The notes under the pieces were generated by a model. It did no database searches. It worked only from the letters and a program-made list of their open reading frames with translations, and was not told where the DNA came from. Source: Candidatus Woesearchaeota archaeon (GTDB taxonomy: Archaea; Nanobdellota; Nanobdellia; Woesearchaeales; ARS49). From it: a DNA stretch of 64,000 nt. Within the stretch, counting starts at the first letter, position 1, and each line of letters opens with the position of its first letter. The stretch lies in contig WJJS01000015.1 in the NCBI GenBank assembly GCA_014729505.1, positions 35,300 through 99,299 of the forward strand, read 5' to 3'. A program made the position numbers and the translations under genes. Below, one piece after another: positions 1-64,000 of the stretch.

Positions 1-901
1 TGTCATACTCTTTTACAGCGCAGATCTACTCATAGATGGCATTTCATCATACGCAGCAAAACTAGGATTAAGCGATGAGATCATAGGATTTGTTGTTGTA
101 GCACTGGCAGCATCAGTACCGGAAATGGTCACCTCAATAGGAGGAATCACGTCGGGAGAGCCAGGACTATTATTTGGCACGATCATAGGGGCGAACATGG
201 TACACATGGCACTGCTTGTGGGAGGACTAACGGTCGTAGCAAAGAAAATGAACATGCAGAGCAAACTGCTGCGACACAGCAATTGGTTTGTCTGGATGCT
301 CTTAATGCTGCCCTTTATCTTAGCAGCCGATGGATTGCTCAGCAGATCAGACGGCCTGATCCTCACAGCCGCGTTTGTCGTATACCTGGTAAGGCTCTGG
401 AAAAAAGAAGAGAAAAGCATGAAACTCAAAAAGACAGTGCGACTAGAACGCATCTGGAGGGATGCAGTCATCTTTCTTGGCGCACTTGCAGTACTCACAC
501 TTGCAGGGCAATTTCTCGTCTTTAGCGCGATCAATCTTTCAGACATCATCCAAATACCTGCGTATTTTATCGCGCTCACAGTAATCGCTGTGAGTTCAGC
601 GATGCCAGACTTCGCCGTAGGACTGCGCTCAGTGTTTCGAGGAGTACAAAAGATCGGACTTGGAGAAATCATCGGCAGCATGGTCGTCGAACTGCTATTA
701 TTTCTAGGAGTAATATCGATAATCCAACCAATACCTATTGAAGTGCCAAGTGTCCTCTCAGCATCGATCTTCTTAATCATAAGCATCACGATCACCATGT
801 ACTATTTGAAACTCAAAAGCATCACATGGAAGCATGGCATCGTGCTTCTCAGCTTGTACGCGTTGTTTGTGTTAAGCGAATTATATCAATTATTCTTTTA
901 G
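1..901 (+). CDS. Na+/Ca2+ exchanger (CaCA/YrbG-like) membrane protein, 5' end outside window
   Basis: Frame-2 translation from nt 2 is open and reads ...GLSDEIIGFVVVALAASVPEM... (alpha-1 repeat); alpha-2 repeat GEIIGSMVVELLLFLG follows; multi-TM; listed ORF 125..901 is the internal ATG. Confidence 0.7.
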   Translation, partial: VILFYSADLLIDGISSYAAKLGLSDEIIGFVVVALAASVPEMVTSIGGITSGEPGLLFGTIIGANMVHMALLVGGLTVVAKKMNMQSKLLRHSNWFVWMLLMLPFILAADGLLSRSDGLILTAAFVVYLVRLWKKEEKSMKLKKTVRLERIWRDAVIFLGALAVLTLAGQFLVFSAINLSDIIQIPAYFIALTVIAVSSAMPDFAVGLRSVFRGVQKIGLGEIIGSMVVELLLFLGVISIIQPIPIEVPSVLSASIFLIISITITMYYLKLKSITWKHGIVLLSLYALFVLSELYQLFF

Positions 902-939
902 AGACAACTCTTTTATAGCAGCCACACTATTTCAGATCC

Positions 940-8554: not shown

Positions 8555-8810
8555 ACGCCGGTTGAGGAGAAGGTTCATCATCATCCTTTTTATCAACCTG
8601 ATCAAAAAACGTAGCCATACTACCTTCCTGACGATCCTCCATTTGACGCCGTTGTTCAAGATTACGAAAATCACGTTCATTAACCATCAACTGCAAAAAA
8701 CGAATAACCTTTCTCAAATCCTCTTTTGAATCACTTTCCGTATCAATAGTAAGCTTCATCTCTTTTGCCAAAGGGAAGCGGTCTACCATAAAAATATTTC
8801 GACTATCCAA
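8535..8810 (-). CDS. hypothetical small acidic protein
   Basis: 91-aa ORF immediately downstream of, and overlapping, the secreted protein gene. Confidence 0.3.
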   Translation of the reverse strand: MDSRNIFMVDRFPLAKEMKLTIDTESDSKEDLRKVIRFLQLMVNERDFRNLEQRRQMEDRQEGSMATFFDQVDKKDDDEPSPQPAFKLDFF

Positions 8811-9468
8811 ACCAGGAATAAAACAAACCGCGAATAGAAAGACTCACGCGCTGCCACCAGGACGCTTCCACTGTTGTGGGAACCGCTTCAAGAATACGCG
8901 TCACATTACCTTCTGCATCCTCATAACGCACAGTAATACTTGCAGGAGTATGCAAATCACTGCCTTTTAACGTAATAGTGAACTGTTCATGCTCCACCTC
9001 TTGTGGTGCAAACAATAATTGAGAACCGCGCAACCAGACCGTCACATTACGAGGCTCAGTATACGACACCTGCTCAAGAATAAAACTAACCTGAAACTCT
9101 TCATCATATCCAACCTTTTCAGGCGCTGTCAGATTCTTGAGCACGAGCTTAGGCATATCAAAATGCGAAAGAAAAATCTCTGCCTGCGCAGTTTTGCCAT
9201 CTCCAGAGGCATGCAAAGGAAACGTGTAAGAACCAAGAGGAATATCTTGAAGAGTAAACGTGATTGTCCGCGTCCCAAAGGGAGGAAGATCCACTGATTG
9301 ACACTCTCCATCAATGCAAACCTCCGTTGTAAACGAGTAATTGCGAGCACTCATAATATCACACCAGACCGTTGCAGGAGCCTGAGGTTCACACTCAATA
9401 CTGAACGGTTCAGACTGCGCAACAACCATGCCTGCAAGGATAACAAATACAAGCAAACCTCTTTTCAT
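8803..9468 (-). CDS. secreted protein with signal peptide and multiple N-glycosylation sequons
   Basis: MKRGLLVFVILAGMVVAQS signal peptide; several NxS/T sequons. Confidence 0.5.
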   Translation of the reverse strand: MKRGLLVFVILAGMVVAQSEPFSIECEPQAPATVWCDIMSARNYSFTTEVCIDGECQSVDLPPFGTRTITFTLQDIPLGSYTFPLHASGDGKTAQAEIFLSHFDMPKLVLKNLTAPEKVGYDEEFQVSFILEQVSYTEPRNVTVWLRGSQLLFAPQEVEHEQFTITLKGSDLHTPASITVRYEDAEGNVTRILEAVPTTVEASWWQRVSLSIRGLFYSWFG

Positions 9469-11034: not shown

Positions 11035-11241
11035 GTCGGAGTCTGGATTTTCTCCAGGACAGCGTCAAGCAGAGCTTGACTGGCCCCGGTTCAAATCATT
11101 ATAACAGAAAAATTTGAGCGCTTATGCGCCCACAACGCCGTCGCCCGGATTTGAAACCAGGACAGCGTCAAGCAGAGCTTGACTGGTCCCGGTCCAAATC
11201 ATTATAACAGAAAAAGTGGTGACGCTCTCGCGTCATAGAAA
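11035..11241. repeat. two tandem ~105-bp units, each carrying a degenerate copy of the tRNA-Ser 3' end plus a conserved 56-bp core and a variable hairpin+T5
   Basis: 11138-11163 cgccgtcgcccggatttgaaaccagg matches the tRNA-Ser 3' end (11242-11266) for 20 nt then diverges; 11035-11058 is a more degraded copy; 56-bp cores 11059-11115 and 11160-11215 are near-identical (3 mismatches). Confidence 0.7.
11211..11235 (-). terminator. hairpin plus T5 tract immediately 3' of tRNA-Ser
   Basis: Minus-strand TGACGC-GAGA-GCGTCA hairpin followed by CCACTTTTT; a similar hairpin+T5 (GGGCGC ATAA GCGCTC + TTTTT) follows the second repeat unit. Confidence 0.4.
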
Positions 11242-11325
11242 CGCCGTCGCCCGGATTTGAACCGGGATATCCGTAAGGAAACCAGCTTAGCAGGCTGGCG
11301 CAGTACCAGGTTGTGCCACGACGGC
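11242..11325 (-). tRNA. tRNA-Ser (anticodon GCU), class II with long variable arm
   Basis: Manual fold: acceptor GCCGTCG/CGACGGC, D stem GCA/TGC, anticodon stem CCAGC/GCTGG with loop CTGCTAA, variable stem-loop TCC-TTAC-GGA, T arm CCCGG-TTCAAAT-CCGGG, discriminator G; no encoded CCA. Confidence 0.75.
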
Positions 11326-11404
11326 AATGTACGACAAAGAAAGACAAATGGTTTTAAAGTTTTCTACTCGATAGGTTTTTAAGTATTGATGACTTACTGA
11401 AGTT

Positions 11405-40444: not shown

Positions 40445-40556
40445 CGCCCCCGGCAGGATTTGAACCTGCGACCTGACGGTCTCTTTCAAAGCTTGCTTAG
40501 AGCAACAAGCGAAGCAAGATAACAGCCGTCCGCTCTAACCACTGAGCCACAGGGGC
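40445..40556 (-). tRNA. tRNA-Asn (GUU) with a 39-nt intron at the 37/38 position
   Basis: Manual fold: acceptor GCCCCTG/CGGGGGC, D arm GCTCAGTGGTTAGAGC, anticodon stem GACGG/CCGTC, loop CTGTTA|intron|A, T arm GCAGG-TTCAAAT-CCTGC; intron lies at plus 40481-40519. Confidence 0.8.
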
Positions 40557-44766: not shown

Positions 44767-44858
44767 GCCCGAGTAGTATAGTCTGGATAGTACGCACGGT
44801 TGCGGAAGAATACTTTTGCAAAATCCGTGTAACCGGGGTTCGAATCCTCGCTCGGGCA
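44767..44858 (+). tRNA. tRNA-Arg (GCG) with an 18-nt intron at 37/38
   Basis: Acceptor GCCCGAG/CTCGGGC, anticodon stem CACGG/CCGTG, loop TTGCGG|intron 44806-44823|T, T arm CGGGG-TTCGAAT-CCTCG, discriminator A. Confidence 0.7.
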
Positions 44859-45100
44859 TGTTTTACTTGTTAGATTTTCTTTGTTTTTCTATGGCTCGTC
44901 TTCGAACCCGGGTTCGTCACCTCGAAATCTGGGATTTCGCGGACCTCGAACACCTGTGGTGTTCAAGGAATCCTCGCTCGGGCATACTTACATTGCCTTT
45001 TGGGCTTTGTTTTGTTTTTCTATGGCTCGTCTTCGAACCCGGGTTCGTCACCTCGAAATCTGCGATTTCGCGAACCTGTTAGGCTGGAGAAAACACCAAT
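44859..45100. repeat. two tandem ~130-bp units downstream of tRNA-Arg, each with a ~70-bp conserved core (palindrome CGAACCCGGGTTCG plus a 7-bp-stem hairpin) and a partial copy of the tRNA-Arg 3' end
   Basis: Cores 44880-44945 and 45006-45075 differ at 2 positions; 44967-44983 gaatcctcgctcgggca duplicates the tRNA 3' end (44842-44858); hairpins CGAAATC-TGG-GATTTCG (44921-44938) and CGAAATC-TGC-GATTTCG (45051-45068). Confidence 0.7.
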
Positions 45101-46913: not shown

Positions 46914-48473
46914 TTGATAGCAAAAGTTATTATAGTTGTCAGTCCCCTTAAGAAAAAAATGTTGCACAAAAGAGGTAGAACACAACATACTGCAGGAATA
47001 CTGTTCTTGTTTATCATCGTGCTAGCGGCAAATGCCGTCATAGCGTTTCATGGTTCTGAATGTACTACTTTGAGAGATTGTCCAACGTATTGTGTGCAAA
47101 ACATCATTTACGAAGAACCGTCCTGTGTTGAAGGGTATTGCGAATACCATGTTCGCCAGTGTCCTGATAACGAATATTGTTATGTAGAATCCTACTGGCC
47201 AACTGCAGTATACCCGGATCAGGCCCGAACAATTGGAGGACAGCCCTTTTTAAGCGCAACAGAAGCTACTTTTGCATGCAAACCTAAAACAGGAACCACT
47301 TGCGGCAATTTTCGCCTGAATGAGGGCGAAGAATGCGATCCTCCATCCGGATTAGGACAATCCGCTCAATGTGTCATCACTTTAGCAGATCAAGAATTTG
47401 TTGATGAGTACTATGATCAAAAGATGAGCTACACTGATAGCGTGGTATTAGCGCGAATGCAACATTACGGGTGTAATGATCAATGCAAATGCTTCGCTTT
47501 TTTCTGTGGTGACGAAATCGTATCAGATTTTCACACCGCTCCCTCGCCTAAGTACAGAGACGAACCATGGTACGATGAGGGCCTTGAGAAGGATATTGAT
47601 AATGAAGAATGCGACCCTCCGGGAACTCCCCACCCTACAAATCCATCACTGCGCTGTGATGCATACTGTCAATGGAATGAAATCGGTCAAGAATCAGTTC
47701 CGCCTGAATGTCATCGTAACGAAGACTGCGCAAAACGATTTCCTGCTAGGTGCAAAAACGAATTAGAGCTCACCATTCCCTGGTGTAAGGACAGTACATG
47801 CACACAAGGAATCTATGAATGTGATGATGATCAGGAATGCAGAAATGAACCAGAACCGGGATGTTATATCAGAGAATCGCGACCAGCAGAAGAACCTGCA
47901 ACAGAAACAACTTCTGCCTTCCCGCAAACAGTTGAAAAATTACAAAAAGCAATGAAAAACAATACCAAATTTTCTTACCGCGGCATAGAACTGCCCAAAG
48001 GAAACTATCAATTTATTATCACAGACAATGCTGCGTTCGTCGAAAGAAAGTATGCGCTTGACATCACAGAGACAAGCCTGTTATTAACCACCGGTCCTCG
48101 ATCCACTACTCTGGTAACCTCCTCAAAAGACGCGCAGCACGTTCTTGATCTCCTCAATGAAGAATCGTACTTTGTCGCAGCAACATTTGCACAACGGCAC
48201 TTTATACAGAATTCGCCACGTCTGGTCGACAATATAGAGGCAGCAATAACGCGAACACTATCTGCAAACCTCGAACGCCATCAAAACTCAATACTCAGAG
48301 CTCAAGACGTTCGCAATCAGGAACTCCCGCTAGCAAGCGCGGCGATAGAACAAACTACGAGTTTCATAAGAACTGCATTTACTCCCGTTCTCGCTCTGCC
48401 TGATCTTATTAGTAACATTCGCGAACAAATCCAATTACCTGCATCCTTAAGAGGGACTCATGAAATCATCTAA
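46914..48473 (+). CDS. secreted cysteine-rich protein with repeated GEECDPP motifs
   Basis: N-terminal hydrophobic signal/anchor; about 40 Cys; two ...EECDPP... repeats resembling the myxococcal cysteine-rich repeat. Confidence 0.5.
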   Translation: MIAKVIIVVSPLKKKMLHKRGRTQHTAGILFLFIIVLAANAVIAFHGSECTTLRDCPTYCVQNIIYEEPSCVEGYCEYHVRQCPDNEYCYVESYWPTAVYPDQARTIGGQPFLSATEATFACKPKTGTTCGNFRLNEGEECDPPSGLGQSAQCVITLADQEFVDEYYDQKMSYTDSVVLARMQHYGCNDQCKCFAFFCGDEIVSDFHTAPSPKYRDEPWYDEGLEKDIDNEECDPPGTPHPTNPSLRCDAYCQWNEIGQESVPPECHRNEDCAKRFPARCKNELELTIPWCKDSTCTQGIYECDDDQECRNEPEPGCYIRESRPAEEPATETTSAFPQTVEKLQKAMKNNTKFSYRGIELPKGNYQFIITDNAAFVERKYALDITETSLLLTTGPRSTTLVTSSKDAQHVLDLLNEESYFVAATFAQRHFIQNSPRLVDNIEAAITRTLSANLERHQNSILRAQDVRNQELPLASAAIEQTTSFIRTAFTPVLALPDLISNIREQIQLPASLRGTHEII

Positions 48474-59865: not shown

Positions 59866-60381
59866 ATGGCACACGTCATCCTCGATTTAGAATCACTTAA
59901 AGCACTAGCGACAAAAAGCCGCCTAGCTATACTCAAACAATTACAACAACGGCGACATACCGCTTCAGAACTCGCAAAAGAAATGGGACTGCGCGTACCC
60001 ACTGTTAGAGAACACCTTACAAGTCTGGCCCGAGCACAACTTATACAGCGACACGATGAAGGACATAAATGGAAATATTATTCGCTCACGACAAAAGGAC
60101 GAGCCATCGTAGAACCACAAGAACGACGATTCAGTATCGCGCTAGCAACATTTATCATCGGCGCACTGGGATTCGTGTTCTCCATTAGCGCAGCAATAAC
60201 AAACAGAATCGCAGAAGACGGCGTGCAAAGTCCGGAACTGATGGATGCAGGTGTACGCGCACTGCAAGCAACACCGGTGCTCAGTCACAACGCACCAAGC
60301 TATACCTTCATCTTACTTAGCGCGATACTCTTTTGTGGAGTAATCATTATATCACTTCTAGGACTACGCCGACGTTCATAA
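59866..60381 (+). CDS. ArsR-family HTH regulator with C-terminal TM segments
   Basis: Winged HTH (SRLAILKQLQQRRHTASELAKEMGLRVPTVREHLTSL) followed by two hydrophobic helices. Confidence 0.65.
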   Translation: MAHVILDLESLKALATKSRLAILKQLQQRRHTASELAKEMGLRVPTVREHLTSLARAQLIQRHDEGHKWKYYSLTTKGRAIVEPQERRFSIALATFIIGALGFVFSISAAITNRIAEDGVQSPELMDAGVRALQATPVLSHNAPSYTFILLSAILFCGVIIISLLGLRRRS

Positions 60382-60412: not shown

Positions 60413-61339
60413 ATGGCACGAACTGTTACCATTGTCATAAGCACGTCTTTACTCTTGCTTCTAGCAAGCCAGGTAACGCTCTTTTACCTGTTCTATGAAT
60501 TTGACAAGGACACTACTGCGAGATTTTCAACAATGCTTGCCAATGATCAACTCCTAGAACAAGGAATAGAAGATCTCAACACTCATATCGCAAGTACCAC
60601 ACAACAATTAGAAACAGCAATACTGAACACGCGCCAGGACCTCGGTGAGCAACTAATAAGCGTACAGCAAGAACTTGAAACAAGTACCGCCGCGTTTGCA
60701 CAAGATATTGCCGCTCTTGAACAAAGCCAGGCACAAACAAAAGCAAGCCTACAGGATTCAATACGAAACCTGCAATTGTCCAACCAGGATTTCAGCGGCA
60801 CCATACAAGACGTCCTGCCAAGCGTGGTCAGCGTGCTGACAGACGAAAGTCAGGGCAGCGGCGTTATTGTAGACAGAGAAGGACTAGTACTGACGAATTA
60901 TCATGTCATCGAAGACGCTACTATGATACGCGTGGTAACCGTTGAAGGGGATGTGTTAGGAGTAGACGTGCTAGGCTTTGCAGACAAACGAGATCTTGCA
61001 GTACTACACATACGAGGAGACCGAAGATGGGATGCACTCGATTTTGCAGACGACACGTTTGTAGGACAAAACGTTATTGCCATAGGCAATCCAGGAGGAC
61101 TGGGATTTAGCGTAACGGAAGGTATAATAAGCAGTACTAACAGAATCTTTGACGGATTGCACTTTGTGCAGATCTCAAATCCTATCAATCCGGGAAACAG
61201 CGGAGGACCACTCGTCAACATCGAAGGAGACATCGTAGGCATCAATACCCTCAAAATAGAAGGATTTGAAGGAGTTGGTTTTGCCATTCCAGCAACAGAT
61301 GCAGAAAATATCCTTGCACAAGCAAAAGAGTTGATATGA
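60413..61339 (+). CDS. membrane-anchored trypsin-like serine protease (HtrA/S1C-like, no PDZ)
   Basis: Catalytic triad contexts TNYHVI, DLAVLHI, GNSGGPL; N-terminal TM plus coiled coil. Confidence 0.75.
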   Translation: MARTVTIVISTSLLLLLASQVTLFYLFYEFDKDTTARFSTMLANDQLLEQGIEDLNTHIASTTQQLETAILNTRQDLGEQLISVQQELETSTAAFAQDIAALEQSQAQTKASLQDSIRNLQLSNQDFSGTIQDVLPSVVSVLTDESQGSGVIVDREGLVLTNYHVIEDATMIRVVTVEGDVLGVDVLGFADKRDLAVLHIRGDRRWDALDFADDTFVGQNVIAIGNPGGLGFSVTEGIISSTNRIFDGLHFVQISNPINPGNSGGPLVNIEGDIVGINTLKIEGFEGVGFAIPATDAENILAQAKELI

Positions 61340-61460
61340 AAAAAAAATACGGAAACGTCATCGCCATTGTAGTCGCACTCCTCGCTATCATAGCCGTTGC
61401 GATACTACTCAGCTTCGTCCTTTAGAAAGCATTATATAGTTTGGAGTTGCATAACGGCGT

Positions 61461-61706
61461 ATGTTCAAAAGAGGGGATCCATCAACAGTCTTTCTCTTAC
61501 TCGCAGTAGGATTACTGCTTCTCGGCGGAGTATACTTATCAATTTTGTCAAGCAGTGGGAATGACATCACGGGAGCTGCAGGACAAACAACAGAAAGCTG
61601 TTCCACGTGCATGGTATGCACAGCACAACCAGGAATCTGCATTTCATTATTCGTACTCGTAACCTGCATTGCAGGCATAGTCGTAATAGAATTTACACGA
61701 TCATAG
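61461..61706 (+). CDS. small membrane protein
   Basis: 81 aa, 2 TM helices. Confidence 0.3.
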   Translation: MFKRGDPSTVFLLLAVGLLLLGGVYLSILSSSGNDITGAAGQTTESCSTCMVCTAQPGICISLFVLVTCIAGIVVIEFTRS

Positions 61707-61747
61707 GACGCAAGCTATATATACTACTCTCTCTTTATCGTAGCGAT

Positions 61748-64000
61748 ATGGTGATAAAAAAAGGGGCGACTATAGTTCTCTTCCTTTTATTTTGTAGTCT
61801 GGCAATGACTGCAGGCGCAATAGAAGTTGCCGATGAAGCGGCATGCGCAGGCACACCAGACCCCTCACAATATACGTATCCAGACAATTCAGGAGCGTGT
61901 TACCAAGCAGTACTTGCAAAAGCAAGCGATGCAGTCAAATGCTATTGCGCTGCAACAGGAAAATGCAGCGTGCCACGCTGTTCTTGTGCAACAAAACGAT
62001 CAACAGACGGGCATTTAAACATTGAATATGCCGAAAGTGATTTAGACGTTATAAAAGAATGCACTGGCAACCCTGCAGCAACAGGACTGTCAAGCCTCTT
62101 TGGAGCAGGCGACACGTTTATCGCTGATGACAGCACTGCAGGAGTACTCATCACTGATCCAGCACTCTGCGGCAACGGTGTCATAGATCCAGGAGAATCA
62201 TGCGATCCTAACAAAGCACCAACAGGATGCAGTGAACTACGCATCTGTGGCACACCAGCAGACCCGCGACCATGCAGGTGCACCTGTGATTATGAACGCA
62301 ACGCTGCAGGACAAGTCGTCAAAAAAAGCACAGGCGCCATAGGGGATCCCTGCAAAGGACGAGCAGCAGCAAACAAAGAATGGACATTCGACGAAGCATC
62401 ATGCACGTGCAAAGAAGTCTGTCAGGATAATCCACCAGTATCATTTACTCAAGCCAGTTGTCGCGCACAACATACGAGCAAAACAAAATGGAACGAAGAT
62501 ACCTGTGCATGCCTCTTCTGCGGCGACGGCACATACACTACAGATCCAGACGTGAGCTGTGACACCGTAGCAGGCACGGACCCGGTTGGCGCATTTGCCT
62601 GTTCGTACAAAGAAGAATGTAACGCACTGACATGCGGATGCGATTTCTGCACTGACGGCGTCAAAGCCTCATTACTCGCCGATTGTCAAATAGAAGCCTT
62701 CATTGAAGATATAGATCTCATGATGGATCCAGGAAACTGGCTATATGATTACCGCATACCAGGAAGAAATCCTGCACTACATCATAAACGAGTCAATTTC
62801 GCATCCTTGAAGATTGCAAATGATTGTAGCAAATGCACCTGGTCATACATCATCACCAATCCACCGCGCCCACCACCAGGATGGATGCCGCCAGGAGGAT
62901 GGCCCATTCCTTTACCACCACCATGGCTTGGACCCGCACCACTCAATATTACATCAACAAACGTGACCCCTGTCAATGCAACACCGCCCAACATGACAGG
63001 AAATATCAGACCAGTAAACGTGACACCACCAAACGGTACAGGGGGAGTCATCTTTACTGACACGGACGGCGATACCATTTACGATTTTGCAGACAATTGC
63101 GTTCTCATACCAAACGCGCAACAAGAAGACTGGGATCTCGACGGTATTGGAGATGTGTGCGACAATTGTATATATTTTTTGAACCCAACACAAGCAGATA
63201 CAGACACTGATACGTACGGCGATGCATGCGACCTCTGCCCGACAGAAGATGATCGCATCGATACAAACGGCAATGGTGTTCCAGACTGTCTAGAAGGGCC
63301 ATCACCGCCGCCAACACCATGGTGTACTGACGCAGACAATGACGGACTCTACGTCTATACCGCAACAGGCAACGCGACTATGCCGCCAGGAGCAAGCTTC
63401 AGTTGCGCAGTACAAGGACATTACGACTGTGATGATACAGACCCATTACAAACAAGCGAGTTTTTACCAGAAGCATGCGACGGTTACGACAATAATTGCA
63501 ACGGACTCGTCGATGACGGACTAGGCAATCTCACGTGCGGACAAGGCATTTTTGAAAACACCGTACCGGCATGCGTGAATGGACAAGCACAACTCTGCAC
63601 ACCAAAAGATGCATGCCCCAATGACCCGCAACGCGATGCAGATCAAGACGGCATCTGTGGCGACGTCGATAATTGCCCGCTCATAGGAAATCCCAGTCAA
63701 GCAGATGACGATAATGACGGCATAGGAAATGCATGCGATAACAATACCATCGTCAATACACCTACCTGCGGCAGTGTCACCGTTACCAGTCCATCAGGAT
63801 CCATAGGAATCAATTGTCCAACAGGATCTGGAGGGTCCCGACGGGGAGGATCAGTAACAGTAAGCAATATCACTGTTGGTTATCCAGAACTTAGCGTCGA
63901 GATCAGCTGTTTAAAAACGATCATCAGCACACCATATATCTGTGTTGAAGAAGGACTGAACAGTATCACATATACGCAAATCCTGCCAGGAGACGAAGAG
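61748..64000 (+). CDS. large secreted cysteine-rich surface protein with myxococcal-type Cys-rich repeats and thrombospondin type-3-like Ca-binding repeats; 3' end outside window (not in ORF track)
   Basis: Manually translated frame 2 is open from the ATG at 61748 to the window end (>750 codons): signal peptide MVIKKGATIVLFLLFCSLAMTAGA; CGNGVIDPGESCDPN repeat; TSP3-like DTDGDTIYDFADNC..DLDGIGDVCDNC, DTDTDTYGDACDLC, DADQDGICGDVDNCP, DDDNDGIGNACDN; the minus-strand ORFs listed inside it are antisense artefacts. Confidence 0.7.
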   Translation, partial: MVIKKGATIVLFLLFCSLAMTAGAIEVADEAACAGTPDPSQYTYPDNSGACYQAVLAKASDAVKCYCAATGKCSVPRCSCATKRSTDGHLNIEYAESDLDVIKECTGNPAATGLSSLFGAGDTFIADDSTAGVLITDPALCGNGVIDPGESCDPNKAPTGCSELRICGTPADPRPCRCTCDYERNAAGQVVKKSTGAIGDPCKGRAAANKEWTFDEASCTCKEVCQDNPPVSFTQASCRAQHTSKTKWNEDTCACLFCGDGTYTTDPDVSCDTVAGTDPVGAFACSYKEECNALTCGCDFCTDGVKASLLADCQIEAFIEDIDLMMDPGNWLYDYRIPGRNPALHHKRVNFASLKIANDCSKCTWSYIITNPPRPPPGWMPPGGWPIPLPPPWLGPAPLNITSTNVTPVNATPPNMTGNIRPVNVTPPNGTGGVIFTDTDGDTIYDFADNCVLIPNAQQEDWDLDGIGDVCDNCIYFLNPTQADTDTDTYGDACDLCPTEDDRIDTNGNGVPDCLEGPSPPPTPWCTDADNDGLYVYTATGNATMPPGASFSCAVQGHYDCDDTDPLQTSEFLPEACDGYDNNCNGLVDDGLGNLTCGQGIFENTVPACVNGQAQLCTPKDACPNDPQRDADQDGICGDVDNCPLIGNPSQADDDNDGIGNACDNNTIVNTPTCGSVTVTSPSGSIGINCPTGSGGSRRGGSVTVSNITVGYPELSVEISCLKTIISTPYICVEEGLNSITYTQILPGDEE

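Follow-up and report, generated by a model that had tools for sequence, protein, structure and literature searches.

Little is known of the way in which DPANN archaea such as the Woesearchaeota make contact with other cells and recognise them, and their surface proteins are obvious candidates. The last part of the window (the whole stretch of 64,000 nucleotides analysed here, from Woesearchaeota contig WJJS01000015.1) raises the question of what its long, cysteine-rich open frame encodes and what the product may do on the cell surface. Overall, the protein is of an ordinary kind, most of it consisting of repeats of known types, and its only unusual part is the outer head domain, of which three sequences are found worldwide. 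Its likeliest role, judged from topology and domain types, is that of a Ca2+-stiffened surface adhesion or contact protein.

On the forward strand, direct translation of positions 61748-64000 is open over 751 codons with zero stops, and the chance of a stop-free run of this length is about (61/64)^751, roughly 1e-16. Across 100% of its length, the translated sequence has 100% identity to MBD3319048.1 (P0001), a 'hypothetical protein' of Candidatus Woesearchaeota archaeon with 972 aa as annotated in GenBank/NCBI; the gene is already annotated and thus not newly discovered. MBD3319048.1 continues for 177 codons and a stop beyond the window end, so that the complete protein has 928 aa from 61748 and contains 67 cysteines, 55 of them in the window part. 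A sequence-only reading had described an unterminated frame of more than 750 codons, encoding a large, cysteine-rich extracellular protein, and had proposed extending it to the full gene and checking it for an in-frame stop or the frameshift of a pseudogene. Frame, size and cysteine content agree with that description, the extension was obtained through the database entry, neither a stop nor a frameshift was found in the window frame, and the extracellular location is predicted. The frame had indeed been missed by the ORF list, which is a tool artefact since the lister skips ORFs running off the window.

Position 61748 is almost certainly the true start; the start at 61616 in the GenBank entry is probably a mis-annotation, which the present analysis corrects. 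A TATA-like box upstream of the ATG (Table 1), together with an A/T-rich box at equal distance from the start in a second locus (JGI, L001), suggests that the gene is transcribed from a promoter of its own, into an mRNA that is leaderless or has a short leader. The contig context is archaeal, with an ATP-dependent DNA ligase, FtsZ, a Hel308-type helicase and a Dph5-like methylase nearby, and so are the long tRNAs, which were detected by Rfam only. With a GC3 of 0.40, the gene does not differ from its neighbours in this respect and thus bears no mark of recent horizontal transfer, and this origin was rejected. Within the window, no DNA direct repeats of at least 35 nt involve 61.7-64.0 kb; no template/variable repeat pair touches the gene there, and the gene was rejected as a target of a diversity-generating retroelement or of other repeat-mediated variation. 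The gene is real, intact, and from a Woesearchaeota (DPANN) archaeon.

Table 1. Window coordinates of the surface-protein gene, its parts and its upstream neighbours (aa numbered from the start at 61748).
Feature	Position	Strand	Basis
ArsR/SmtB-type HTH protein with two C-terminal TM segments	59866..60381	+	HTH_20, HTH_5; 44% identity to L001 neighbour
Membrane-anchored HtrA/DegS-like serine protease without PDZ	60413..61339	+	Trypsin_2 98.6 bits; 58% identity to L001 neighbour
29-aa single-TM peptide	61336..61425	+	41% identity to L001 29-aa gene; also in L002
81-aa two-TM small protein, directly upstream	61461..61706	+	BLASTP E=1e-12 to L001 83-aa gene; TM prediction
TATA-like box (ctatatata), ~25-34 nt upstream of ATG 61748	61714..61723	+	read from sequence
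Surface-protein CDS, first 751/928 codons	61748..64000	+	open frame; identity to P0001/MBD3319048.1; end-to-end P0013 alignment
Predicted signal peptide, aa 1-24 (MVIKKG...TAGA, then I)	61748..61819	+	hydrophobic segment and AxA site
Disulfide-rich head, aa 25-365 (~340 aa)	61820..62842	+	family-less; found only in P0001, P0013, P0124
Module A, aa 141-181, CGNG..GE.CDP..C..C..CxCxC (DUF4215-like / disintegrin-start-like)	62168..62290	+	hhalign
Module B, aa 258-303, degenerate CGDG...CD...C..CxC	62519..62656	+	FCGDG and P-D-x-x-C-D invariant in 3 members
Pro-rich linker, aa 366-434, six N-x-S/T sequons (aa 400-431)	62843..63049	+	sequence reading
TSP3 cluster 1, aa 435-514: 1 N-type, 2 C-type motifs, 1 partial loop	63050..63289	+	Pfam TSP_3
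MopE-like putative metal-binding motif region, aa 526-592	63323..63523	+	PF11617
TSP3 cluster 2, aa 621-666: 1 N-type and 1 C-type motif	63608..63745	+	Pfam TSP_3, alignment
Membrane-proximal Cys-rich module, aa 667-~835, start	63746..64000	+	P0001 sequence, hydropathy, 43% identity to P0013

The protein begins with a signal peptide, as the sequence-only reading had proposed: MVIKKGATIVLFLLFCSLAMTAGA, followed by IE, combines a basic n-region with a hydrophobic core and an A-x-A site (signal-peptide and TM calls are based on hydropathy and motif reading). Its first residues, MVIK[KR]G, are invariant in 3/3 family members. The head that follows has homologues only in P0001, P0013 and P0124, according to an exhaustive HMMER search of 1.84 billion representatives. 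It has no match in Pfam, NCBIfam or PDB, and PDB profile searches with the head and with the C-terminal module gave nothing significant. Scans of metagenome contigs with C-terminal and N-terminal profiles returned no further members and also missed the known locus L001. About 25 Cys positions of the head are invariant in all three members and the remainder is divergent. The head is the most diverged part of the protein: its identity to P0013 is 36%, against 54% in the TSP3/MopE stalk and 44-59% in the neighbouring genes. AlphaFold2 models from the 3-sequence alignment were unusable for both the full protein (pLDDT 33.7) and the head alone (pLDDT 43.7), and only the TM helices of the full-length model had a pLDDT above 50.

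Within the head, the sequence-only reading had noted a CGNGxxDxGExCD repeat and assigned it to the myxococcal Cys-rich repeats. The motif is present, in one strict copy at aa 141, CGNGVIDPGESCD, and one degenerate FCGDG...CD unit (aa 257-303); therefore, it is a motif and not a repeat array. In profile-profile comparison, module B showed no significant similarity to module A or to DUF4215. Module A has the CGNGxxDxGExCDP core of DUF4215, the Myxococcus cysteine-rich repeat (PF13948), and shares its full Cys pattern with the related CGNG..GE.CDP..C..C..CxC tandem repeats of bacterial P0122, P0123 and P0127. With hhalign it matched the bacterial CDP-type tandem repeats at 98.9% over 38 columns and the canonical PF13948 units of P0126 at 96.7% over 23 columns, in both cases with short profiles and with comparison sets chosen by a motif regex that favours a match. 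It differs from DUF4215 in its second half, which reads CxCxC instead of GDGC..C, and in that the unit stands alone and forms no tandem array. Pfam at E<=10 and NCBIfam at E<=0.1 gave no PF13948/TIGR02232 match, either for the whole protein or for module A alone. Of the myxococcal assignment there remains one related unit of ~40 aa, and the array and the Pfam/NCBIfam match fall away; it is one sub-threshold DUF4215-like unit. The 'cysteine-rich repeats' of PMC7379824 (phage att sites) are an unrelated eukaryotic repeat.

Module A also shares the opening CGN-x3-[DE]-x-GE-x-CD with the disintegrin start of ADAM and SVMP proteins (2i47 ADAM17, 3k7n), in whose structures the CGN..GE.CD loop is a Ca2+ site; this is a lead only. 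The best PDB matches of the repeat profile, ADAM17 (E=0.045) and SVMP (E=0.19), cover its first 14-36 residues and are not significant, and the whole-head profile matched bitistatin at E=2.4. With these E-values, no Pfam Disintegrin match and no metalloprotease domain, the module is not assigned to the disintegrin domain.

The Pro-rich linker reported earlier is present, begins with PPRPPPGWMPPGGWPIPLPPPW, and has Pro-rich, sequon-bearing counterparts at the equivalent place in P0013 and in the third locus (L002). Beyond it lie the TSP3 repeats of Ca-binding type, for which Pfam TSP_3 (PF02412) scored 35.5 bits against a cutoff of 25 in three stretches of the window protein, the best being aa 621-651, and 33.0 bits in the full-length protein. 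C-type motifs occur three times, at aa 461 (DWDLDGIGDVCDNC), aa 484 (DTDTDTYGDACDLC) and aa 653 (DDDNDGIGNACDN), and N-type motifs twice, at aa 437 (DTDGDTIYDFADNC) and aa 630 (DADQDGICGDVDNC); two partial Ca-type loops (aa 505 and aa 528) are also present, so that the earlier count of at least four repeats was fair. The MopE-like region between the clusters scored 24.3 bits for PF11617 (cutoff 27) in the window protein and 37.8 bits at the aligned position in P0013. Three C-terminal TM helices (aa ~839-925), beyond the window, are predicted by hydropathy and conserved in P0013, and their loops follow the positive-inside rule.

The stalk resembles the thrombospondin/COMP wire (3fby, 1yo8, 2rhp, 1ux6; PF02412), with which it shares alternating N-type (DxDxDxxxDxxDNC) and C-type (DxDxDGxGDxCDxC) motifs and paired Cys. 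Aa 438-496 align with the type-3 repeats of COMP 3fby and TSP-2 1yo8/2rhp (E=1e-26, 1e-22), and aa 628-666 with thrombospondin-1 and -2; both segments match residue by residue. By analogy, the expected function would be to coordinate Ca2+ and so bring order into a chain that is unstructured without it. However, the archaeal protein has two short clusters with a total of about 5 full motifs, compared with the 13 or so of thrombospondins, and unlike them it is predicted to be membrane-anchored and is without a coiled-coil oligomerisation domain. EGF repeats and the C-terminal lectin-like TSP_C gave no Pfam match at E<=10 in full-length P0001.

Among prokaryotes, the TSP3 + MopE-motif cassette occurs in several hundred database proteins at 30-40% identity. 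These secreted or surface proteins include Woesearchaeota P0039 and Myxococcus MtsC (NCBIfam NF047638), which is described as a cell-cell cohesion protein. The MtsC model reached 66-68 bits, on the TSP3 part only, against a cutoff of 350; with this score, and with three TM helices at the C-terminus instead of MYXO-CTERM, the protein was rejected as an MtsC equivalog. This anchor differs likewise from the PEP-CTERM and T9SS signals of prokaryotic TSP3 proteins, and among the best 120 matches the triple-TM anchor with the CxxW..C..RVCxDxNxCG motif is confined to P0001 and P0013. The N-terminal head, too, sets the three-member family apart from the other prokaryotic TSP3 proteins.

The full-length ortholog P0013 aligns end to end with P0001. 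Apart from the conserved features, the orthologs are only 30-40% identical, and a beta-rich insert of ~170 aa was gained or lost among them. The same two small membrane-protein genes precede the family gene in all three loci, the 81-aa two-TM protein having an 84-aa counterpart in L002. The start codon of the 29-aa gene and the stop codon of the HtrA-like gene overlap in ATGA, and the same 4-nt overlap is found in L001. The protease, which also has partial NCBIfam matches, and the HTH gene are syntenic in two loci, the window and L001; L002 is without the protease neighbour, and its 2.9-kb contig ends ~1 kb upstream, so the HTH gene is not assessable there. The HTH protein scored 53.4 bits with the ArsR/SmtB metalloregulator model (cutoff 55). 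These two neighbours are genomic context, and any functional link of the surface-protein gene to them would be putative.

Gene integrity, domain content, TSP3 homology, head rarity and the conserved gene neighbourhood were observed; topology, glycosylation and Ca2+ loading are inferred from sequence, and so, more than any of these, is the adhesive role. The preferred explanation, held with slightly better than even confidence, is a lineage-restricted, membrane-anchored surface glycoprotein with a Ca2+-stiffened stalk and an exposed contact head. The protein would be exported by Sec and lose its 24-aa signal peptide, and the three C-terminal TM helices would keep it in the cytoplasmic membrane, with the basic loop of the anchor and the basic tail on the cytoplasmic side. 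Outside the cell, the membrane-proximal Cys-rich module would bear the stalk, formed by the two TSP3 clusters and the MopE-like motif. By homology with thrombospondin/COMP, the stalk may carry some 10 or more Ca2+, with disulfides inside the repeats pinning it, and it would therefore be stiff only when calcium is present. The proline-rich, probably N-glycosylated linker would set the disulfide-knotted head apart from the cell. As its most exposed and fastest-diverging part, the head would likely be where the protein makes contact, be it with a partner cell, a substrate or a polymer of the matrix. The sequence-only reading had regarded such adhesin-like proteins as candidates for attachment to a host or partner in episymbiotic archaea; for this protein, such a role may reasonably be supposed from its topology and domain types. 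The functions of prokaryotic TSP3 repeats are largely unknown (PMC6593220); archaeal TSP3 proteins are regarded as surface-matrix or adhesion candidates (PMC6593220, PMC6461757), and fast-evolving surface proteins have been reported from DPANN symbionts (PMC6142677). The gene provides one concrete surface candidate with a fast-evolving orphan head, a conserved Ca-binding-type stalk and a membrane anchor, accompanied by two orthologs and a conserved small-gene neighbourhood. As it stands, it is mainly one more TSP3-repeat surface protein on a long list.

Another explanation, considered rather unlikely, is a structural envelope protein, S-layer-like or part of a surface matrix, which would build or stabilise a Ca2+-bridged envelope with no partner binding. 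Large size, probable N-glycosylation, a C-terminal anchor and Ca2+-binding-type repeats are common traits of archaeal envelopes, the gene lies among housekeeping genes, and the TSP3 proteins of ammonia-oxidising archaea have been discussed as extracellular-matrix components (PMC6593220). However, if a widespread clade had this as a main envelope protein, it should turn up in more than three of 1.84 billion representatives, although S-layer proteins do diverge fast. The triple-TM anchor is unusual among S-layer proteins, the variable beta-rich insert is hard to fit into a lattice, and the full-length protein had no NCBIfam or Pfam match to a PGF-CTERM, archaeosortase or S-layer signal or domain. 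It is improbable that the family forms a whole partner-recognition device of Woesearchaeota, in which a diversifying head of new fold on a Ca2+-switchable stalk would act with the 29-aa and 81-aa membrane proteins and, in 2/3 loci, also with the HtrA-like protease and the ArsR-type regulator. Such a device would sense contact with a host or partner, and regulated proteolysis would pass the signal on to transcription.

The same neighbourhood enters into a MopE-like extracellular handling of metal (Cu or others), where the MopE-like motif and abundant Cys and Asp of the surface protein, together with the ArsR/SmtB-type neighbour, would form a metal-sensing or sequestration unit. The PF11617 scores here and in the ortholog, the likeness of the conserved regulator to ArsR/SmtB and its synteny in two loci agree with such a unit. 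Its chance of being correct is nevertheless slim, with PF11617 being short, widespread, a companion of TSP3 in many surface proteins and below cutoff here, the regulator being under its family cutoff, the third locus being without the protease neighbour, and extracellular Cys being far likelier disulfide-bonded than metal ligands. A class III (prepilin-type) signal processed at [KR]-G (between MVIKKG and A), which would place the protein in or on a pilus-like fibre, is very improbable. It would account for the invariant MVIK[KR]G in otherwise divergent orthologs, for the MF[KR][KR]G with which the adjacent small protein begins, and for the hydrophobic stretch directly after it in both proteins. 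Against it, 2/3 members have an AxA signal-peptidase-I site past the hydrophobic core, the protein's own triple-TM anchor is incompatible with incorporation into a fibre, and no pilin, PibD or ATPase genes were found among the ORFs scanned (42.5-64 kb). Finally, it is hardly credible that the gene is an artefact, be it a pseudogene, the product of chimeric assembly or part of a bacterial contaminant whose contig was mis-binned. Outside the family, the best TSP3 matches come from bacteria (Fibrobacteria, Sorangium, Polarisedimenticolia) and the L002 member is frameshifted at an A-run, but the frameshift affects a homopolymer in a Logan assembly of short reads, outside this window. The window frame is uninterrupted, its GC3 is that of its neighbours, these and the tRNAs are archaeal, and an independent full-length ortholog has conserved flanking genes.

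The GEECDPP repeat had also been assigned to a smaller protein elsewhere in the window (46914-48473), whose match to Nodulin_late is below cutoff and was rejected as a coincidence of Cys pattern. Its similarity to the surface protein does not extend as far as first supposed; all that the two proteins share is a 14-residue CGN..GE.CDP stretch (BLASTP E=0.036).

The gene at 61748-64000 on the forward strand, which runs past the window end, encodes a member of a new and very small family within the known and already annotated prokaryotic TSP3-repeat surface proteins; P0039, another Woesearchaeota protein, is already named as a TSP3-repeat protein. Only its orphan head, its anchor of three TM helices, and the two conserved small membrane-protein genes in front of it are out of the ordinary. 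The unterminated frame of >750 codons described in the sequence-only reading translates to 751 codons with no stop, for which the chance probability is roughly 1e-16, and the entire window part aligns at 100% identity with P0001 (MBD3319048.1, 972 aa as annotated, 'hypothetical protein GF342_04025 [Candidatus Woesearchaeota archaeon]', from a 100,137-bp contig). The frame was said to be missed by the ORF track; it is absent from that list because ORFs running off the window are left unlisted, and with the gene already annotated in GenBank nothing was biologically missed. The gene lies among archaeal housekeeping genes, which encode FtsZ, an ATP-dependent DNA ligase, a Dph5-like methylase, and a Hel308-type helicase that has the archaeal domain 4. 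At 0.40, its GC3 is the same as in the neighbours (0.37-0.48), so the slightly raised G+C of the gene comes from amino-acid composition. No DNA repeats touching the gene, either tandem repeats or template/variable pairs of the DGR type, were found.

The GenBank start of MBD3319048.1 lies at 61616, 44 codons upstream of 61748. The latter, which is the start of the sequence-only reading, is probably correct and 61616-61747 mis-annotated, since MVIK[KR]G opens all three family members, the 5' extension overlaps a conserved 81-aa ORF in another frame, the third locus (L002) has an in-frame stop nine codons upstream of MVIKRG, and a putative TATA-like box precedes 61748. With this start the gene product has 928 aa, 751 of them inside the window.

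Features of the surface protein, its gene neighbourhood and other elements of the window (aa numbered from the start at 61748; L001 and L002, loci of the two other family members)
Feature	Position in protein or window	Position in other loci	Remarks
Signal peptide	aa 1-24		basic n-region, hydrophobic core, A-G-A|I site
Head	aa 25-365		about 31 Cys
Pro-rich linker	aa 366-434		six N-x-S/T sequons inside 32 residues
TSP3 cluster 1	aa 435-514		Pfam and alignment to PDB type-3 repeats
MopE-like motif	aa 526-592		PF11617, 24.3 bits (cutoff 27)
TSP3 cluster 2	aa 621-666		Pfam and alignment to PDB type-3 repeats
Second Cys-rich module	aa 667-~835		C-terminal end CxxWG..C.GLGI....RVC.D.N.CG
Three hydrophobic helices	aa ~839-925		hydropathy-type reading of sequence
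Beta-rich insert		L001 ~8620-9150 (P0013 aa ~300-475); L002 frame 1 ~nt 2240-2730	between head and Pro-rich linker
TATA-like box ctatatata	61714-61723		~25-34 nt upstream of 61748, read from sequence
81-84-aa two-TM protein	61461-61706	L001 7444-7695; L002 785-1039	few Cys
29-aa single-TM peptide	61336-61425	L001 7319-7408; L002 ~630-720	
HtrA/DegS-like protease	60413-61339		membrane-anchored, without PDZ; 58% identity to L001
ArsR/SmtB-type HTH	59866-60381		two C-terminal TM segments; adjoins protease upstream; 44% identity to L001
Second Cys-rich protein	46959-48473 (+)		MBD3319030.1, 504 aa
Long tRNA	40445-40556 (-)		112 nt
Long tRNA	44767-44858 (+)		92 nt
81-nt direct repeat	44866-44946, 44997-45077		90% identical, 131 nt apart
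59-nt direct repeat	11054-11112, 11157-11215		97% identical, 103 nt apart
tRNA-Ser	11241-11326 (-)		

The signal peptide and the Pro-rich linker of the sequence-only reading are both borne out, and its calcium-binding repeats are recognised by Pfam as TSP3 (35.5 bits; cutoff 25). The type-3 repeats of COMP (3fby, E=1.3e-26) and of thrombospondin-2 (E~1e-22) can be aligned, position for position, with aa 438-496 and 628-666, and the TSP3 assignment is solid. By the established knowledge of thrombospondin type-3 repeats, the stalk would be loaded with Ca2+ and pinned by disulfides. At the aligned site of the full-length ortholog, P0013, PF11617 scores 37.8 bits (cutoff 27). By sequence rules the protein is predicted to be exported and N-glycosylated; the TM anchor has a basic loop (HARRNNRNP) and a basic tail (QRREK), in keeping with the positive-inside rule if the N-terminus is outside. 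With a three-sequence alignment, AlphaFold2 gave no usable model: pLDDT was 33.7 for the full length, exceeding 50 in the TM helices only, and 43.7 for the head alone.

The head matched nothing in Pfam, NCBIfam, or PDB. Its CGNGxxDxGExCD motif, which had been read as a myxococcal-type repeat, occurs in one strict copy at aa 141, with a degenerate FCGDG...CD unit at aa 257-303. Neither PF13948 in Pfam nor the repeat models in NCBIfam matched, even with the 41-aa unit alone at E<=10. In an exhaustive HMMER search with the head profile, matches outside the family were confined to profile positions ~110-162 and came from bacterial proteins with tandem CGNG..GE.CDP..C..C..CxC units, several of them with PF13948. 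Profile-profile comparison of the hhalign type, with short profiles and sets gathered by motif regex, related the strict unit (aa 141-181) to bacterial CDP-type units with 98.9% probability over all 38 columns and to canonical PF13948 units with 96.7% over 23 columns; the similarity of the degenerate unit was not significant. Therefore, a single unit of a DUF4215-like class stands and an array does not. Against PDB, the unit profile matched best the beginning of the disintegrin domain, first in ADAM17 (E=0.045) and then in a metalloproteinase of snake venom (E=0.19), a likeness that is suggestive and not significant.

Using a two-sequence profile with no word filter, the head was found in only three of 1.84 billion representative proteins: P0001, P0013 (E=1e-119), and P0124 (E=6e-8). 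P0013 (1008 aa; JGI metagenome 3300041081, locus L001) aligns with P0001 from the signal peptide to the last TM helix, and among the 120 best TSP3 matches these two alone show both the membrane-proximal motif and an anchor of three TM helices. The third member (L002, Logan assembly ERR10503186) is represented by its N-terminal part, P0124; a frameshift at an A-run within GAAGAAAAGCC (~nt 1860-1880) breaks the gene, which the end of the contig then cuts short. The frameshift may stem from a homopolymer error in the assembly or mark a genuine pseudogene. In the second frame follow the FCGDG unit, a beta-rich insert of ~170 aa, poly-Pro, and TSP3 repeats. The insert is shared with P0013 and absent from the window protein; it has no Pfam match and looks DUF11/CARDB-like by eye, with the motif (V)DVN(G/A)NG(F/M)ADAGD..(Q/R)Y..TI.N.G. 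Scans of genome and metagenome contigs gave no further members, weak negatives because the known loci were not returned either.

Identity to P0013 is 36% in the head, 43% in the membrane-proximal module, 41% in the TM anchor, and 54% in the TSP3/MopE stalk; the flanking genes are 41-59% identical to their counterparts at L001. In the head, about 25 Cys positions are unchanged in all three members. This is how a scaffold fixed by disulfides would look beneath a surface that changes fast, and it agrees with published work on the surface proteins of DPANN symbionts (PMC6142677).

The two small membrane-protein genes precede the surface-protein gene at all three loci; the 81-aa protein matched no family. 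The start of the 29-aa gene and the stop of the HtrA/DegS-like protease gene overlap by ATGA in the window and in L001, where an Mrr-like gene (56% identity between these loci) and an Exo_endo_phos gene (52%) also lie upstream of the protease. At L002, another gene precedes the peptide. The conserved ArsR/SmtB-type HTH protein and the protease next to it could represent a membrane-tethered regulator paired with a protease. The protease has a long, coiled-coil-like N-terminal region.

Most likely, the product sits on the cell surface, anchored in the membrane and stiffened by Ca2+, and its head contacts a partner cell, particle, or matrix; the role in adhesion is proposed by analogy only. The analysis does demonstrate that the gene is intact, which domains it encodes, its TSP3 homology, how rare the family is, and the synteny. 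Rival readings would make it an envelope protein or one of S-layer-like kind, give it a part in metal handling or in prepilin-type display, or treat it as an artefact. In prokaryotes, roles of TSP3 repeats beyond Ca2+ binding are unclear (PMC6593220), and the adhesion role given to TSP3 genes in marine archaea is an inferred one (PMC6461757). The observation of the sequence-only reading is confirmed, and its interpretation partly supported.

The smaller protein said to share the GEECDPP repeat, listed at 46914-48473, really starts at 46959; the start at 46914 is a TTG overlapping the DNA ligase gene start on the opposite strand. A 14-residue CGN..GE.CDP stretch is shared (E=0.036), and no other similarity. 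This protein is predicted to be secreted, with a signal peptide, 26 Cys, the motifs CGN..GEECDPP and DNEECDPP, no C-terminal TM, and a Cys-free C-terminal domain of ~170 aa without a family match.

Elsewhere in the window, the two long tRNA genes, found by the Rfam tRNA model and not by ARAGORN, are probably intron-containing archaeal tRNAs. Directly downstream of the 92-nt one lies the 81-nt direct repeat, which holds the palindrome CGAACCCGGGTTCG and a CGAAATC/GATTTCG hairpin; it has no Rfam family and a folding z-score of only -1.3 to -1.7. The 59-nt direct repeat, which has no Rfam match, adjoins tRNA-Ser, and its minus strand forms a stable hairpin (z = -3.66), with 0 of 200 shuffles folding as well.
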